A stretch of DNA of 64,000 nt, taken from positions 192,001 to 256,000 of the IMG/VR virus record IMGVR_UViG_3300029288_000056. The stretch is one strand, 5' to 3'. The notes below the pieces were generated by a model. It saw nothing but the letters and a program-made list of their open reading frames with translations. It did no database searches and was not told the origin of the DNA. Of the stretch, positions 7,279 through 55,377 are shown one piece after another (the first letter of the stretch is position 1; the number at the start of each line of letters is the position of its first letter). Made by a program: the position numbers and the translations under genes. Source of the stretch: a virus. Lineage: Duplodnaviria > Caudoviricetes.

Positions 7279-8385
7279 CTACTCTCCTTTTGGTTGCCTA
7301 GCCATTTTCCAAACGAGCATATTCTCGTCTGGCTCTATCATTTTCCAAATAGCCTTATCATAAGGCCTATTATCTAACATTAAGAAGGCGAGAGCTCTGT
7401 AAGGGCTGTCCGCCATGTAAGCTGCGAATTCTTTTCGAGATTGAGCTTGAGTCTTACCGAGCTTAAATTCGTATTTCTCAAACAGTTCCTTCGCCGCCGT
7501 CTCGATTTCGTTGTACTTGGCTTGAAAGTCGTCGATCAGTTTCTTAATAACTTCATACTGCTCGTCCGGCATTCTCTCAAGCAGATCGTCCCTATGCTCT
7601 CCAGCCATCATCCATTCCCAAATTCGCTTCGTGGTGACTGAGAACATACACTTATGCAGAGTCAGATAGTCCTCGAACTTAACTTTAACACGCAAACCGT
7701 CCGGGAATCTGATTACGAAGCCTTCCTCGTTCGGCGTATTGAGGCCTTTGAGTTCGTCGATACTGGTTACACCGTCAAGCCGTTCAACAACCGGGAAGCC
7801 CGCATCGTTGTTGGCCAACATCTCGTCATAGGTCAATTCCCGACCAGACTTGGTTTCGAACATGGTTATAAGGAACAGATCCTCAGTCTTCCCGTAGTCA
7901 AGTACTACTCGGTTTTCAGGGTAGATGATTTCAAAGAGATACGAGTAGTTCGGATTGAGCTTAGACGCGTCGTAACGCTTTATCATCTCATTAGCCTTAA
8001 CCGCTCGCTCGCCGTCAAAACAACCACGAGTAGCTATGTAGGGCTTTCCATCCAAGAAGTAGAGCGTTCCGAGAGAACCGTCCATCTTCTTGGTGATTTC
8101 AAAGTCTATCTTATTAGATACCTGCCGTATGAAGGACAGTCTTTGAGTAAGAGGTGGATTTTGAGACGCCATCTCCTCTATATTGAAGAATTTTTCGACG
8201 CATCTGGACACTATGTTGAAGTTCTTATCCACAATTAAGCCGCGGCAAGCTAAGGTAACTTCGTTCCAAACGCGGTCAAACTGAGTATCCGCAGTATAAT
8301 TGAGGATCCACAGCTCGGCGGTCGGGTGCTTACGTTTAATCACGTACCCTTTCCGCATCATTTCGTTTAGAAGATTAATGTCCAT
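7279..8385 (-). CDS. T4 Rnl1-like RNA ligase
   Basis: ACRGLIV, KFFN, motif I KMDGSL, IATRGCF, YLFEII.PENRVV, EGFV, KVK. Confidence 0.88.
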   Translation of the reverse strand: MDINLLNEMMRKGYVIKRKHPTAELWILNYTADTQFDRVWNEVTLACRGLIVDKNFNIVSRCVEKFFNIEEMASQNPPLTQRLSFIRQVSNKIDFEITKKMDGSLGTLYFLDGKPYIATRGCFDGERAVKANEMIKRYDASKLNPNYSYLFEIIYPENRVVLDYGKTEDLFLITMFETKSGRELTYDEMLANNDAGFPVVERLDGVTSIDELKGLNTPNEEGFVIRFPDGLRVKVKFEDYLTLHKCMFSVTTKRIWEWMMAGEHRDDLLERMPDEQYEVIKKLIDDFQAKYNEIETAAKELFEKYEFKLGKTQAQSRKEFAAYMADSPYRALAFLMLDNRPYDKAIWKMIEPDENMLVWKMARQPKGE

Positions 8386-38196: not shown

Positions 38197-40970
38197 ATTT
38201 ACCCATCTCTTTTCTTGAACGTCTTTTTTCAGCCTCAAGCCATTTTTTATGCTCAAGCCATTCTTTATTTACCGGTTTAACTTTTACTTTATCATATAGA
38301 CATAAATGCAGATTAACAGTTATACTATATCCTTCACCCTTACCATTAATCCAGATGGCTTCTACATTCCACCATTGATCATCAAAGCAATCTTGTATCG
38401 CCCAAATACAATGGTTTAAAAATTCTCCAAAAATAAAATACTTGGTTAATCCTTCAAATTGAAGGTGAAATCCTTGTTTCCCTTTTCTAACATCATTGAG
38501 TTTTATTCTATGCTTTTCTAGGTGAAGTTTAAGCCAATATCTAATCTCCTCTGATTCAAAACCGGCCTGTAGTTTAGGTTTCTCAGTCATTTGGTTCCCT
38601 AATTATCGTCACGATCATCGCAAAAATAAACATAACGATGAAAACTGGTATCCAGACTGGAGAAAGGACCCAAGCCGCGATGTTAACGATCTTATCCTTC
38701 GTTTCCTCCGTCATAATGCTCCTCCTTTGTACCCTCTGTTGCATTAAACTTATATTTAGGGACTCCATTTTTGTCCACCCATGGGCTGCGTATAGTAGCA
38801 GGCTTATGCAGTTCGTACGCGAGGCTTGTGATGTCGATATACAGACAACCTTTGTCACCTTTTTCCCAATTAGACGCAACGACGTCCGAATTACTATTAT
38901 CAAGCTTCCGAACAGTGCTACCTTTCATCAAAACAGTTACCGAACCTTCGCACGGAATGATGTTGATGACTTCTACCCATCCAAGGCAGCGTATTTTTGG
39001 CGCCTCTTCCGGTTCCGGAATATAGTCTTTCAAGGCTCTTAAAGATGAGAGTATTACAAGAACGGTTTTGTTAAACTCTTGCTGATATACGTCTCTCGGT
39101 GTACCATGATCGCATAACATGAGTTCCAACTTATGTTGGGCATCTTGCAGTTTATCAAATATCTCTCTGTATTCCATCGTGTCCTAACAAAAAATTGCTG
39201 AGATTCCATTTGGGTATGTCTCTTTGTGATGAACCATTCCGCCCGAAAGCATTTCCATCCATTGTTCTTTTGTGGCCCTAAAACTACCAAAGGTTGTAGC
39301 CCCAGTCTCACACCAAGCACACAACTCTTCCAGCGTAGCAAAGACGGGGCTAACGGGACTACCTTCTGAGCAGTCCTCCCACAACTGGTATCCATCGCCA
39401 GCGGGTGGATCAATCGGTCGCCATTCCTCAGCTAGTCTCTGGACTTCTTCGCTTTGCCAAGTGTACCCCTCACCGTCACAATGAGGACACTCACCGTAAA
39501 CACCTAGGTGTTCCGCGCGGGCTTTTACGCATACATACTGTTCATTAAAAAAGAAGTCGTGTTTGACATACTCATTAAATTCTTCAGGTGTCGGTTTTTT
39601 CTCAAAGTCTCTCAGTCGTTTCTGTTCCCACAAAGCGTCGATCTCAACTTCGGTTAAATGATACTTCCATGCGTTGTCGTTATAGCGATGATGTGAATCT
39701 AACCAGACATATCTCGGATTATCAAAAGCATACCAGCCTTCGCTGATTTTTCGTGTTTCCTCATTATAGCCAGACCTCTCGCAATAAGGGCAATCTTGAC
39801 TACTGTACGGTGTCAAGTATCCGCTCCACACCTTGTGAAGCGGCCAGTCAAAGTCCATGGGTACACGTTTCAGCTGACGACTCATTTCTACTCCTCTGTC
39901 ATTTCATCAATACGCTTTTTGAATTCCTTTTTCAAACCGAGCTCCGGCATAGTAAGCCATTTTTTAAGCATCTCAACGTCGACTAAAAAGAATGTCTTGA
40001 GCTTGTAATCACATGAGATAAAGGCTGCTTGTGGAAATTCCATTTTCACCATATCTTCGAGCTTATTGCCATCTTTGTCCAATAGACCACTTTCTGTTTC
40101 TGAAAAAATAGGCACCTCGAGGTACTCTATGTTCTCAAACATGTCCATTGGCATGTCAACCATCTCAAATGTTCTTGCTCCAATATCCGGCATAATAAGG
40201 GGAAGTTTCTTATTCATTATTTATCACCTCACCATCGTTAACTTTCATAATCTCGTCTTCTCTAAAGACACCATCAATACAAACAACTTCGTCAATAATA
40301 AAATCATGTATTGCGCAAAATCTTAGGGCGCCTTCTTTAGAATCAAAAGCACCCAATAGACTCCCAGTATAATAATCAGGACCACACTTTACAAGCCATA
40401 GCCATTTTTCATCGTTAAAATTTTCGTCTACTTCATCTATATCAACGGTAGTTCTACAACGATACTGCCCGTCGTCACGATGATACTCGTTTGTTTGTAC
40501 AATACCAACCTTAACGGCGCTTACATTTATTAAGGTCTTAAGAACTTGCTTTTGTTCTAAGTCCACTTTACTCCTCATTAGGGAAATGATTCTTAAACGC
40601 TTCAAGATACGTGTTGATCTCTAAATACAGTAAATCCCCGTAGCCGCGCTTACTCAAATCTGCCCATTTCTCAAGCACTTCTTTGGGCATTGCCACCCTA
40701 TTTTCATCGATAAAATCTATTAAAACAGAGTAAACGGATCCCTCTGTTAAATCGTTTTCCTTATCCATTTTGTTTTTCCTTTTGTTTATCCATAAACTCT
40801 TCTCTCATCTTAATATATACTAAACAATTCTTAAACTTCGGATTAATGCAATTACTTGGTGATGCGCCTTGACACCCCATGGCTAACAAGATAACTTCGC
40901 CTTCTGAATAATGTTCACAATTGATCTTATCACACTTGATTGATCCCATAACGAACTCTGGTATAATCAT
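38168..40970 (-). CDS. Seven to eight hypothetical proteins, including a 233-aa Zn-finger protein (39184-39885)
   Basis: 39184-39885 has CPYC/CPHCDGEG and YQLWED.SEGSPVSPVF. Confidence 0.55.
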
Positions 40971-40974
40971 AATG

Positions 40975-41060
40975 AGCGGGCGGCGGGATTCGAACCCGCA
41001 ATAAGACTTTATGTCTTGCTGGGTTGGAGGCCCAGTACCATACCATTAGGTGACGCCCGC
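40975..41060 (-). tRNA. tRNA-Gly(TCC), atypical: long variable arm, C33
   Basis: Acceptor GCGGGCG/CGCCCGC with U73; D-arm ACC/GGT; anticodon arm CTGGG-CCTCCAA-CCCAG; V-arm AAGAC-ATAAA-GTCTT; T-arm GCGGG-TTCGAAT-CCCGC; no CCA. Confidence 0.85.
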
Positions 41061-41888
41061 AATAATATCCACGACTCTATCAATCATACTAAGTGAATTT
41101 AAAAATAGTAAATTAATATCATTATTTTCAAGAGCTTTTTTAATCTTATATCTACGTTCTTTTTTATCGTAACCCCTAATCTCTAGATAAACATTAAGAT
41201 TCGGAAGATAGAAATCTGGATGATATTTATGCTCTTCACCATTATCATCAAAATAAACGAGATACCTATTATAATCCCTTTCCCATTTGATACCTTTCTC
41301 GTCCATTCTAATAGCGCATCTTAATTCCCAACTACTGTCCATCCAAATTCCCTTATAATACGAACCATGAATTCTACTTGTTCCTGATTTTGTTCTATAT
41401 CCCCCTGTTTTACCTTTACAACTTCTAGAAATTTTATCTTTTATTTCTTGTGTTGGTATAGGATGATAATGCGCCCCGCAAAACCCAGTTTTGTTATTAC
41501 TAAGTAGTCTTTTCCCGCAAACTATACATACTTTAAGTTCCTTCTGAGTTACTACCGTTCGACTTTTGACAGCTAATGTTTTCTTTAAAGTTTCTCCAGC
41601 TTTACGCTTAGATTCCTCTGTGGGATGTCTTCCGTTAGCACAAGACCTTGAGCGGTGTTTGCGATATCTACCTATATTAAATCGGTGCGGCGTTACCAGA
41701 ATCTCATATTCATTACCACACTTCTCGCATTTAAGTTTATATTCTTGCCGCCGTGTGAGATTTTCTTGCACTTTCTTCATATGCGCTTTTCTATTGGGAT
41801 TATAAAAGCAATTAGTCTTGTGCCCACCAAATTGCTGTCCATTAGAAAATTCTAACCATTTATTACAATGCTCACAATAATACTTCAT
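41046..41888 (-). CDS. Free-standing PD-(D/E)XK homing-type endonuclease between two tRNAs
   Basis: Zn-finger and NUMOD3-like segments; MDSSWE, YHPDFYLP..NVYLEIRG. ATG directly follows tRNA-Glu; the stop lies in the tRNA-Gly D-loop region. Confidence 0.8.
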   Translation of the reverse strand: MKYYCEHCNKWLEFSNGQQFGGHKTNCFYNPNRKAHMKKVQENLTRRQEYKLKCEKCGNEYEILVTPHRFNIGRYRKHRSRSCANGRHPTEESKRKAGETLKKTLAVKSRTVVTQKELKVCIVCGKRLLSNNKTGFCGAHYHPIPTQEIKDKISRSCKGKTGGYRTKSGTSRIHGSYYKGIWMDSSWELRCAIRMDEKGIKWERDYNRYLVYFDDNGEEHKYHPDFYLPNLNVYLEIRGYDKKERRYKIKKALENNDINLLFLNSLSMIDRVVDIIAGVT

Positions 41889-42764: not shown

Positions 42765-42776
42765 GCGTTTTCTTTT

Positions 42777-42848
42777 AGCCCTCATCTGGACTCGAACCAG
42801 AAATAGTTGACTACCGATCAACCGTTTTGCCATTAAAACTATAAGGGC
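42777..42848 (-). tRNA. tRNA-Thr(GGT), C33/G38
   Basis: GCCCTTA/TGAGGGC+T; GTTGA-TCGGTAG-TCAAC; TCTGG-TTCGAGT-CCAGA; no CCA. Confidence 0.87.
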
Positions 42849-42855
42849 TTAATAC

Positions 42856-48169: not shown

Positions 48170-49732
48170 TTACAAATCTATACTCTCTATAACCTCAACG
48201 AACTGATCCACATCGTTTCCGTATTTCATGAACATACTTATCACGTTATATACGGAATCGCTGAACCCGCCCACGTTGAGAATTTCTTTACTGTTATGCG
48301 CTTGAGTGGACGTATTTGGCGCCAAGTCTATACAAACTAACTTTGCACCCGGATTGTGTTGCTTAAACTTCTTCCACTCATCCATCGTTGAAGTTCCTCG
48401 GTAGCTGTCCTGACTATCCACCCATGATTCGTTGTCAGATAGATAGATGCAAAGATCGCCCTTCTTGCCGTTTTGATTCAAAAAGGCCAATGCTGTGGAG
48501 CAACTTGTGCCTCCACCGCTACTACCTCCGATTTCTCTTGCGTTTGTAGCAATAGAATCTAGAGGGTTGATCCCACTCATAAGTTGTGCTCTGGTCGCAA
48601 ACTGTATAACTTCTGCAGTTGGATTCTTGCGCAAAATAGAAGCCGCAAACAGACCCGCCACGTTACAACAACTGACTTTAGAAGTAGCACTTCCTCTTTG
48701 GCCGGTCACGGGAGAACTCATAGACCCAGAGACATCAACGAACAGCCAAACCTTTCCCTCAATCTCAGGTATATTCTCCGCCGAATAGTCAAGAGCCTTT
48801 TGTAGCGCTATGGTTATCTCGCGTGGCATTTCGCTTTGCGCGAACATGTAAGCCGTAAACAGTTGATAAGGAAATGTTCTGGACTTTTTCACAAGTTCAG
48901 CATCCATCAACTGACTAACAACGTATTGCACCATTTCTTTGTCTTCAAAGACTTTGTGACGTAGAAGCGTATTGAGATTGATTCTCAATTGGTTCCAAGT
49001 CATAGTCTTTGCGAGCGCCTTCCAATGTGCATCGGTAAGGCTCAGGGACGTTAGCATCTCAAATGGAACTTCTGGAAACGCGACAGACTCCCCGTTAGTA
49101 AGAGCTTTCTTAAACAACTCGTACGCTTTTAGGTCGTCTGGTAGTAAAACGTCGTTAAACTCGCGGCCCAACACGTAGTTGATCGTATTCTCGCGTTCTT
49201 TGTTTACGGGTTTTGGGTGAACCATCTTTATAATATCAGACATTGATGGATCACTTCCTGTGACGAAAGCCACGTAAGAATCGGTCCAACTGTTGATCAA
49301 GCCGGCAAGTTGTTTCTTGAGTGAAGTACCAAAGGATTGGCGACCGAATTTATTCGAACGAATTGCTTGTACGAAGTTTCGTATCATCTTTCCGTTGGTT
49401 ACGACCTTTGGAAACGCCTTTTTAAATTGAGCCAAAGCCTCTGGAGTCTTGCAACCCGCTAGATAAGCCAATAGCGCAACCGGCATGTCCTTCATCAAAC
49501 CACGAGTCGCAGAATAGACCGCGGTCTTGGCGATAAAGGTAGGATCAACTTGAGGTAGATACTTGTAGAGATGGGCGAGTTGGTCTCCCCCACTTGCGTA
49601 GTAGGTGCCGTTAAAGCAGCCGGTTACAGCTAACTGCGCGATGGCGTGCTTTGCACTCATTGAATACGCAATTCCACCTGCGTCATTTACTGCGTCTGCA
49701 GGTTTGACACCGTTAAACACGTTCTTGTTCAT
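48170..49732 (-). CDS. rsr: Ro60/Rsr-like TROVE-domain ribonucleoprotein with a vWA domain
   Basis: NDAGGIAY, TGCFNGTYY, GRQSFG, MVHPKP, LRINLNTLLRH, FPYQLFTAY; vWA MIDAS VDVSGSM; GGGT; LSDNESW; VGGFSD. Confidence 0.93.
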   Translation of the reverse strand: MNKNVFNGVKPADAVNDAGGIAYSMSAKHAIAQLAVTGCFNGTYYASGGDQLAHLYKYLPQVDPTFIAKTAVYSATRGLMKDMPVALLAYLAGCKTPEALAQFKKAFPKVVTNGKMIRNFVQAIRSNKFGRQSFGTSLKKQLAGLINSWTDSYVAFVTGSDPSMSDIIKMVHPKPVNKERENTINYVLGREFNDVLLPDDLKAYELFKKALTNGESVAFPEVPFEMLTSLSLTDAHWKALAKTMTWNQLRINLNTLLRHKVFEDKEMVQYVVSQLMDAELVKKSRTFPYQLFTAYMFAQSEMPREITIALQKALDYSAENIPEIEGKVWLFVDVSGSMSSPVTGQRGSATSKVSCCNVAGLFAASILRKNPTAEVIQFATRAQLMSGINPLDSIATNAREIGGSSGGGTSCSTALAFLNQNGKKGDLCIYLSDNESWVDSQDSYRGTSTMDEWKKFKQHNPGAKLVCIDLAPNTSTQAHNSKEILNVGGFSDSVYNVISMFMKYGNDVDQFVEVIESIDL

Positions 49733-54165: not shown

Positions 54166-55377
54166 TTAACTAACTCTGTTAAATAGGATGTTTTTATCCA
54201 TCAAAGTATTATTACTTTGTTGACGCTTCACAGGGGAGATTGAGACCTCTAGCCCTCCACGTCCAGCACCGGCTAACCGTCCGGCATTTAATATATTAAT
54301 CGCTGCGTTTGTGTCCCTATCATGTTTTGCTCCGCAAACACAAGTCCATTCTCTATCTTTTAGGGTAAGATCGTTGTTGATATATCCACAAACAGAGCAG
54401 ATCTTACTAGATGGGAACCAACGGTCTATAAAAATAATAGAACCGTTTTTCCATCGTTCTTTATATCCTATCTGTCTTACGAATTCACGCATAGATGCAT
54501 CCGCAACCGCACCGGCAAGATGATGATTTTGCATCATGCCACTTATATTAAGATCCTCCAGATATACAATATTATATTTCTTACAAATTCTTGACGTGGC
54601 CTGATTAATTGTGTCATTCCTCTTATCTGCAATGCGTTTGTAAATACGTTGGACTCTTAGTTTAGCTTTTTGTCTGCGTTTACTCCCTACCTCTTTACGA
54701 GCTAATTGTCGTTGCGCTTGTGCTAATAATTTTTCCAAATGTTGTCCGTGTTTAGGATTCTCAAACTTACACCCATCACTTGTGGTCGCAAGCGTTTTTA
54801 CACCTAAATCTATACCCACTTCCCTTACTTGGTTATCGCAAGGGTTCTGGGTTTCAACTTCAACCGTAAACGAAGCGTACCACTTTCCCGCTTGTTCACT
54901 AATCGCAACTGTACCAACTAATTTTCCCTGAAAACGTAAAGACTGACACATACGTACCCACCCGAGTTTTGGAATACGCACTTTGTTATTATCAAGAGCT
55001 ATCGTGCCGGTCTCTAAGTGAAAAACCAGCCTATCTTGTTTTCTACTCTTAAACCGCGGAAACCCCGGTTTACCAGATTTATTCTTAACTCTTCTAAAAA
55101 AGTTAGTATAAGCAAAATCAAGTTGCTGTAACGCTAAACGGGGAATACTTTTAGGCACACCAGATAACCAAGTGTGAGTTGAATATTTCATTATCGTTAT
55201 TTTTGTAGCTAAAATATACGCGCCCGATGTCTTATTTGTGTTTTTGTATTCAGTCTGTTTACTTTCTAATCCAAAATTATAGGCAAAACGGTGGGCGCCC
55301 GCATACTTAACAAACTCAACTTTTTGAGTATCATTCGGTAGTAGTTGTATCTTATGAGATTTATGTATCAGTATCAT
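54166..55377 (-). mobile_element. tnpB: Solo TnpB (IS200/IS605-family RNA-guided nuclease), no TnpA
   Basis: HKIQLLPN N-terminal HTH, RFAYN, PRFKSRK, RuvC GIDLG / YLEDL / DRDTNAAINI, Zn finger CSVCG..C.C. Confidence 0.92.

Follow-up and report, generated by a model that had tools for sequence, protein, structure and literature searches.

We have found a tRNA-Gly(UCC) gene in an uncultured jumbo phage in which the rule on long variable arms and the rule on U33 are both broken in an otherwise functional-looking molecule, and its design recurs in phages but hardly in cells. We read it as a working elongator Gly tRNA of the phage whose extra arm and C33 may serve to protect the phage tRNA pool, and to this statement as a whole we assign a probability of roughly 0.45.

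The window, the whole 64,000-base stretch that was analysed, covers positions 192001-256000 of an IMG/VR virus record of 297,328 bases, with an estimated completeness of 94%. Nearly all of its genes lie on the minus strand. ARAGORN was used to predict tRNA genes and returned seven in the window and 36 in the entire genome. Among them is a tRNA-Gly(tcc) on the minus strand, placed by ARAGORN at 40974-41060 of the window and matched by the Rfam model RF00005 at 40975-41060. The match covers the full model (1-71) and scores 55.5 bits against a gathering score of 29, so the cloverleaf lies above the threshold by which an elongator tRNA is recognized. The gene (40975..41060, minus strand), supported by ARAGORN, Rfam and a minimum-energy cloverleaf, is 86 nt long and does not encode CCA. 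Its RNA reads, 5' to 3' and divided by structural element, GCGGGCG U C ACCU AAUGGUA UGGU A CUGGG CCUCCAA CCCAG C-AAGAC-AUAAA-GUCUU-AUU GCGGG UUCGAAU CCCGC CGCCCGC U. The branch is of the canonical 7/5 type; the 7-bp acceptor, 5-bp anticodon and 5-bp T stems are all perfect, the T loop is UUCGAAU, and G18G19 is present. The D loop has 7 nt and the D stem includes C11-G24, with a U13.U22 mismatch that leaves only three Watson-Crick pairs. The minimum-energy fold is the cloverleaf plus the variable-arm hairpin (-37.4 kcal/mol, z -4.2), and none of 200 shuffled sequences folded as well.

Textbooks reserve a long variable arm in bacteria for Ser, Leu, Tyr and Sec tRNAs. A class I tRNA has a variable loop of 4-5 nt, whereas the variable region here, C-AAGAC-AUAAA-GUCUU-AUU (41000..41018, minus strand), spans 19 nt and carries a 5-bp hairpin at 41003-41017, as seen by reading of the sequence, folding and alignment. 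The preliminary description had drawn attention to this region and its hairpin, and minimum-energy folding and shuffling confirmed both. Folded in isolation, the 19 nt form the identical hairpin at -3.7 kcal/mol (z -5.3), which 0 of 200 shuffles matched, and the final U is able to form a Levitt pair with A15 (A15-U48). The second departure lies in the anticodon loop, CCUCCAA (41024..41030, minus strand; sequence reading and Rfam), which comprises C32, C33 (41029), the anticodon UCC (41026-41028), A37 and A38. U33 is near-invariant in elongator tRNAs and forms the anticodon U-turn; the C reported earlier in its place is indeed present, and position 32 is a C as well.

The glycine elements reported earlier (G1-C72, C2-G71, U73 and UCC) were all found, together with G3-C70, and the bacterial tRNA-Gly identity set listed in PMC7826273 (G1-C72, C2-G71, G3-C70, U73, C35, C36) is present in full. 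The gene was aligned to six other Gly(UCC) genes with a CCUCCAA loop, three from metagenome contigs and three from viral contigs, and the sole large difference was a 15-nt block in the variable loop. Minus this block, the variable loop is CAUU, of normal Gly length. Once the hairpin had been taken out and the anticodon masked, the closest match among 1310 class I tRNAs was the Gly(UCC) of locus L236 (81% identity), a short-arm C33 gene whose acceptor stem and CCUCCAA loop are identical to those of the phage tRNA, and glycine was the commonest isotype among the 30 nearest; ranking all tRNAs by global identity did not discriminate between them. Judged by these alignments, a 15-nt hairpin has been inserted into the 4-nt variable loop of what is otherwise a class I Gly tRNA.

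Other origins of the arm were considered and rejected. Class II tRNAs typically have D loops larger than the 7 nt seen here; this small loop, a Gly-like acceptor stem and Gly-like nearest neighbours speak against a class II tRNA rebuilt into a Gly tRNA. An archaeal-type spliced mini-intron is rejected as well, since no bulge-helix-bulge surrounds the hairpin, the phage is of bacterial type and the tertiary pairs fit a retained arm. The hairpin is not repeated in the phage genome, which argues against a dispersed repeat as its source.

Codon usage and conservation bear directly on how the tRNA is used. Across 348 ORFs, GGA accounts for 1376 codons, or 27% of the glycine codons of the phage. Three of the six GGA codons of DnaB fall at columns that are >98% Gly in an alignment of 119 homologues, and a fourth falls at a column with 69% Gly. 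When 32 phage proteins were aligned with other viral DNA by tblastn, GGA was aligned to Gly at 60% of 302 positions, with comparable values for GGG (59%), GGC (56%) and GGT (51%). No excess of Ser, Leu or Tyr at GGA positions was seen in the DnaB alignment or in the 32-protein alignments. The residue at GGA codons of conserved proteins had been proposed as a test in the preliminary description; because GGA occurs at invariant glycines and is aligned to Gly like the other GGN codons, GGA means glycine in this phage.

The tRNA-Gly(UCC) is the only Gly tRNA with a UCC anticodon, and the only reader of GGA and GGG, in the 36-tRNA ARAGORN set, which is otherwise nearly complete. A profile search of the phage returned neither the GlyRS/SerRS-type class IIa synthetase core (PF00587) nor GlyQ, and a host enzyme must therefore charge the tRNA. 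We infer the expression of the tRNA, its charging and any nuclease resistance from its sequence; a Gly-charged translational tRNA with unchanged amino-acid identity is likely.

The gene had been treated as a one-off, a view that does not hold given C33 in seven of 36 tRNAs, a second extra-arm class I tRNA in the same genome and recurrence across phages. The C33 tRNAs (19% of the set) are Ile(GAU), Asn(GUU), Ser(GCU), Thr(CGU), Ser(CGA), Gly(UCC) and Thr(GGU). Other viral loci have C33 in 69 of 1755 tRNAs (~4%), distributed over many isotypes, and the proportion in this phage is higher (p 6e-4); in cellular-genome loci C33 was found in 3 of 174 tRNAs. Such a cluster of C33 tRNAs in one phage is a more unexpected detail than the arm. 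The only other C33 tRNA in the window is tRNA-Thr(GGU) (42776..42849, minus strand; ARAGORN and Rfam), with the anticodon loop UCGGUAG.

The second extra-arm class I tRNA, tRNA-Thr(UGU), lies outside the window at 134888-134975 of the genome (minus strand; ARAGORN) and has a 17-nt variable region with a hairpin, U-ACGA-GAAA-UCGU-CAC. It and Gly(UCC) are the only extra-arm class I tRNAs of the phage, and both carry U8-C9 and U13.U22. Long-arm homologues of Thr(UGU) with differing stem sequences were found at loci L001, L017, L019, L024 and L173. A single related contig was found, with 39% identity in a neighbouring protein and 18 tRNAs. It has a long-arm Thr(UGU) with another stem (GGC/GCC) and the same GAAA loop, as well as a long Lys(UUU), and the occurrence of the Thr arm in so distant a relative points to an arm that is old and maintained. 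Its Gly(UCC) has a short arm, U33 and a different sequence, and C33 is absent from all 18 of its tRNAs. By this comparison, the Gly arm of the phage would be either newer or of a different gene lineage than the Gly(UCC) of the related contig. Elsewhere in the phage genome, at 265480-265571 (minus strand), a 92-nt tRNA-like gene has good acceptor, D and T arms and an 8-bp hairpin, GGAUUACU-GACG-AGUAAUCC, inside the anticodon loop; its anticodon could not be assigned by ARAGORN.

The neighbouring genes are tightly packed. Upstream of the tRNA lies an ORF of 280 aa (41046..41888, minus strand) with a zinc-finger N-terminal part and an endonuclease I-like (PD-(D/E)XK) C-terminal domain (Pfam PF05367, E 9e-6; PHROG endonuclease families), which is probably a mobile endonuclease. 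It is placed between tRNA-Glu and tRNA-Gly in a region of low G+C (0.374), and its last codons (AGVT) and stop overlap the 5' end of tRNA-Gly, the UAA falling within the D arm. On the other side, a 69-aa ORF (40761..40970, minus strand), identified by translation, starts 4 nt past the discriminator base and had no family match in a PHROG search. This compact layout of endonuclease ORF, tRNA-Gly and 69-aa ORF depends on tRNA processing for separation. A promoter scan near the tRNA-Gly gene gave weak matches only, not above chance. Further along the window, a Ro60/TROVE homologue with a vWA domain (48170-49732, minus strand; Pfam E 1e-16) lies directly downstream of tRNA-Trp, and a Y-RNA-like partner would be expected near it. 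A TnpB/IS605 OrfB-type gene with OrfB_IS605 and Cas12f1-like TNB domains (54166-55377, minus strand) adjoins DnaB.

No close relative of the phage was found in IMG/VR, among GenBank phages or in JGI metagenomes. The exact anticodon-arm plus T-arm pattern had 0 matches in IMG/VR, megablast of 8 kb against GenBank phages also had 0 matches, and blastn of the tRNA-Gly against GenBank phages returned T-arm fragments only. A looser pattern gave three matches in JGI metagenomes, every one with a short arm, and no DnaB homologue above 37% identity was present among the matches listed.

The recurrence of the design was assessed by scanning IMG/VR with the pattern TCCAA-N18-35-GGTTCGAATCC and by applying that pattern to prokaryotic genomes, one for each species. 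Among the matches listed, 31 of 77 tRNAs in viral contigs were long-arm Gly or Trp, versus one long-arm tRNA among 71 matches in cellular genomes (Fisher p 8e-10). The preliminary description had proposed searching phage tRNA sets for the same structure, and it does recur: seven further long-arm Gly(UCC) genes of 84-89 nt, with unrelated arm sequences and on unrelated contigs, were among the viral matches listed. Long-arm Trp(CCA) made up 24 of the 77 viral matches listed and 0 of the 71 cellular ones; across the viral sample (loci L002-L234), it is the commonest extra-arm class I tRNA. The sole long Gly(UCC) from a cellular genome is archaeal (L276, a Nitrososphaerota MAG contig), and its ~17 extra nt after the anticodon stem look like a non-canonical intron, not an extra arm.

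In total, ~100 class I tRNAs with a variable region of at least 12 nt were found in viral loci, some of them selected by the search pattern itself, and the commonest were Trp, Lys(UUU), Thr(UGU), Ile(UAU), Asn, Gly(UCC) and Cys. Of 103 long-arm class I tRNAs, 79% retain the R15-Y48 Levitt pair, versus 72% of ordinary tRNAs. Better folding than in 95% of shuffles was seen for 49% of the 96 distinct extra arms and for 69% of true class II arms. The 13-22 pair of the long-arm tRNAs is often non-Watson-Crick, like that of class II tRNAs. With the Levitt pair kept and the arms structured, long-arm class I phage tRNAs look like working, structurally adapted molecules and not like junk.

In a second scan, eight Gly(UCC) genes of viral contigs had the CCUCCAA loop, and none of them carried a long variable arm. 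Thus, C33 in Gly(UCC) recurs independently of the arm, and no association between long arms and C33 was found across loci. An identical 18-nt variable region, UCAGAUAAGGUUCACAUC, was observed on different Gly(UCC) bodies at L005:4956-5044 (minus strand) and L024:2924-3011 (minus strand); a GGUUC motif within it resembles a T loop, and as a simple hairpin the region folds poorly. In open-access papers and preprints we found no description of long variable arms on class I tRNAs of phages and none of C33 in phage tRNAs. With its class I anticodon and identity, structured arm, kept tertiary pairs and viral enrichment, the tRNA-Gly(UCC) belongs to what appears to be a phage-specific, viral-enriched extra-arm class I design that these sources do not describe.

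We propose that host RNase P and RNase Z probably excise the tRNA-Gly from a long transcript of the minus strand, that it would then receive CCA, and that host GlyRS would charge it via the standard determinants (G1-C72, C2-G71, G3-C70, U73, C35, C36). The glycyl-tRNA would read GGA and GGG for the phage; from older work on position 32, its C32 may widen reading to more GGN codons. The most likely benefit of the arm and C33 would be a change in surfaces that are recognized by host tRNA-cutting or tRNA-modifying defences, such that the phage tRNA pool would survive infection.

The RNA enzymes of the phage fit this proposal. Domain searches revealed a T4 Rnl1-type RNA ligase (window 7672-8247, minus strand) and, elsewhere in the genome, RtcB (291176-293347, minus strand) and a Thg1-like 5'-end repair enzyme (173968-174372, minus strand). 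The RtcB ORF, of 750 aa, is matched by the Pfam model in two pieces ~900 nt apart, and the insert may be an intein. The Rnl1 of T4 mends tRNA that the anticodon nuclease PrrC has cleaved. Given this set of repair enzymes, with Ro60 in addition, it is plausible that the phage tRNA evades tRNA-cutting defences, and nuclease evasion, which the preliminary description had also suggested, is the most plausible adaptive reading of the arm and C33. Against it, we know of no defence nuclease that is specific for tRNA-Gly(UCC), and C33 may lower decoding efficiency, which also weighs against our best explanation. Changes in phage anticodon loops have been proposed as evasion of anticodon nucleases (PMC10264068), but U33C was without effect on cleavage by the K. 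lactis gamma-toxin anticodon nuclease (PMC2275089), which counts against the escape reading. That the arm or C33 is an anti-defence adaptation is accordingly offered as a tentative possibility. The broader idea is somewhat more doubtful: that class I extra arms and C33 are an evolved counter-defence, which would hide phage tRNAs from the tRNA-cleaving nucleases of the host or single them out for phage repair enzymes, with no change in synthetase identity or in use by the ribosome.

It is also possible, if on balance unlikely, that both oddities are neutral decoration of a functional Gly tRNA, the hairpin and U33C being merely tolerated and having no selected role. The variable region faces away from most partners, host tRNA-Gly would act as a backup, and weaker purifying selection on dispensable, host-backed phage tRNAs could be the source of both. 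In keeping with this, the Gly arm is not common to the only related contig, its stem is A/U-rich and weak (-3.7 kcal/mol) where the true class II tRNAs of the phage have G/C-rich arms, across loci long arms and C33 show no association, and the ~4% of viral-contig tRNAs with C33, in many isotypes, is as expected of relaxed constraint. However, all stems are perfect and the tertiary pairs are kept, phage extra arms are structured far above chance and recur in specific isotypes, the Thr(UGU) arm has been kept across a deep split, and the seven C33 tRNAs out of 36 are well over the viral background. The arm, perhaps with C33, could alternatively mark phage tRNAs for RtcB, Rnl1, the Thg1-like enzyme, Ro60 or a modification enzyme. 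The first four of these are encoded by the phage, and just two class I tRNAs are armed, both with U8-C9 and U13.U22; nevertheless, the arm is present in only 2 of 36 tRNAs and the two arms differ in sequence, and we regard such a recognition tag as improbable. Slightly less probable again is a tRNA that does not work, whether as a decaying gene or as a tRNA-shaped decoy that soaks up host nucleases. The C33, the U13.U22 mismatch and the inserted hairpin would suit it, and the same genome does contain the tRNA-like gene without an assignable anticodon at 265480-265571. It is contradicted by the Rfam score far above threshold, the three perfect stems, the 7-nt anticodon loop, the complete identity set and the fact that the nearly complete tRNA set of the phage has no other reader of GGA and GGG.

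The remaining explanations, both raised in the preliminary description, would give the tRNA a meaning or a use other than ordinary glycine decoding. Mischarging supposes that the arm recruits SerRS, LeuRS or TyrRS and renders GGA ambiguous, as reported for nematode nev-tRNAs. SerRS, as studied in E. coli, requires G73 and G2-C71, and LeuRS and TyrRS require A73; the phage tRNA has U73, C-G at 2-71 and the full Gly set. The long variable arm is a major determinant for SerRS (PMC5389517) and C11-G24 is present, but the unpaired nucleotides flanking the arm number one on the 5' side and three on the 3' side, as against 0-1 and 1-2 in the phage's tRNA-Ser. GGA is also used heavily and at conserved glycines, with no Ser, Leu or Tyr excess, and mischarging, which would damage more than 1000 codons, invariant glycines included, is very unlikely. 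The least probable explanation is a private glycyl donor for a non-ribosomal transferase of Fem-like or Mom-like type. Staphylococcal non-proteogenic tRNA-Gly(UCC) species for cell-wall synthesis exist (PMC7826273), C33 might weaken ribosomal use, and Mom of phage Mu modifies DNA using Gly-tRNA-Gly; Mom, however, accepts every tRNA-Gly isoacceptor, so a dedicated tRNA is unneeded (PMC13219725). FemAB (PF02388), Acetyltransf_6, Acetyltransf_1 and Acetyltransf_7 were not found in the phage by profile search, which leaves the suggested donor role unsupported. The T arm is canonical (G49-C65, C50-G64, G51-C63, UUCGAAU), unlike that of the non-proteogenic species, and the phage has no second tRNA for GGA and GGG. 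GGA is abundant and lies at conserved glycines, and neither a GlyRS/SerRS-type synthetase nor a FemAB or GNAT transferase was found in the phage, which makes both recoding and a non-ribosomal role unlikely.

If the arm and C33 protect against tRNA-targeting immunity, these features would mark tRNAs that are under attack in nature, and they would provide natural scaffolds that reveal where an extra hairpin can be accommodated in a class I tRNA, of use in tagged or orthogonal tRNAs. The counter-defence idea, if true, would represent a general, undescribed structural route of tRNA immune escape. If the features are neutral, they would give a measure of the slack in tRNA architecture under host-copy backup. 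In either case, such genes are at risk of being mislabelled as Ser, Leu or pseudo-tRNAs during annotation.

Compared with a canonical class I tRNA-Gly(UCC) (E. coli glyT; L235-L237), the phage tRNA has the same 7/5 cloverleaf, small D loop, GCGGGCG/CGCCCGC acceptor stem, U73, UCC anticodon and GCGGG-UUCGAAU-CCCGC T arm. It differs in its 15-nt hairpin (a variable region of 19 versus 4-5 nt) and in U.U at 13-22, and its C33 is common to only a minority of Gly(UCC) genes. With bacterial class II tRNAs it has in common a long helical variable arm, an effective 3-bp D stem, a non-Watson-Crick 13-22 pair and the Levitt 15-48 pair. In place of a Ser, Leu or Tyr anticodon with G73 (Ser) or A73 (Leu, Tyr), however, it has UCC, U73 and the acceptor pairs of Gly, and its A/U-rich arm ends in a pentaloop; in the class II tRNAs of the same phage, the arms are rich in G/C and end in tetraloops. 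The staphylococcal non-proteogenic tRNA-Gly is marked by a Fem-type partner transferase and by deviant D and T arms that weaken EF-Tu use; in the phage, FemAB and Acetyltransf_6 were not found and the T arm is canonical.

The analogy with nematode nev-tRNAs, drawn in the preliminary description, stands in part. These molecules (tRNA-Gly(CCC) and tRNA-Ile(UAU)) likewise join a Gly anticodon to a long variable arm, but the likeness does not extend to identity, as nev-tRNAs carry leucine determinants. The work of Hamashima and colleagues reportedly assigns them leucine identity, with Leu charging in vitro. Nev-tRNAs combine A73 with a Gly or Ile anticodon and are encoded in nematode nuclear genes; the phage tRNA has U73 and the Gly set, and comes from another domain of life and another origin.

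Phage tRNAs that escape host defences provide a further comparison. T5 tRNA-Tyr escapes retron-Eco7/PtuAB and Septu, T5 tRNA-Lys escapes PARIS, and mycobacteriophages carry anticodon-loop variants (PMC13096335, PMC11555353, PMC11464382, PMC10264068). As in those cases, the phage copy studied here differs from its cellular counterparts in the variable region and the anticodon loop, and repair enzymes are encoded alongside. What has been published concerns substitutions in existing loops, or a class II arm, and in none of these cases is a whole arm added to a class I tRNA. The nearest published relatives of the design are the 8/4 and 9/3 tRNAs of the allo-tRNA paper (PMC5389517). Allo-tRNAs and the (8/4) phage tRNA-Ser and tRNA-His described there are likewise non-canonical, of metagenome or phage origin and in some cases long-armed; an acceptor/T branch of 8/4 or 9/3 is the defining feature of allo-tRNAs, whereas the phage tRNA-Gly, with its 7-bp acceptor and 5-bp T stem, is a 7/5 molecule.
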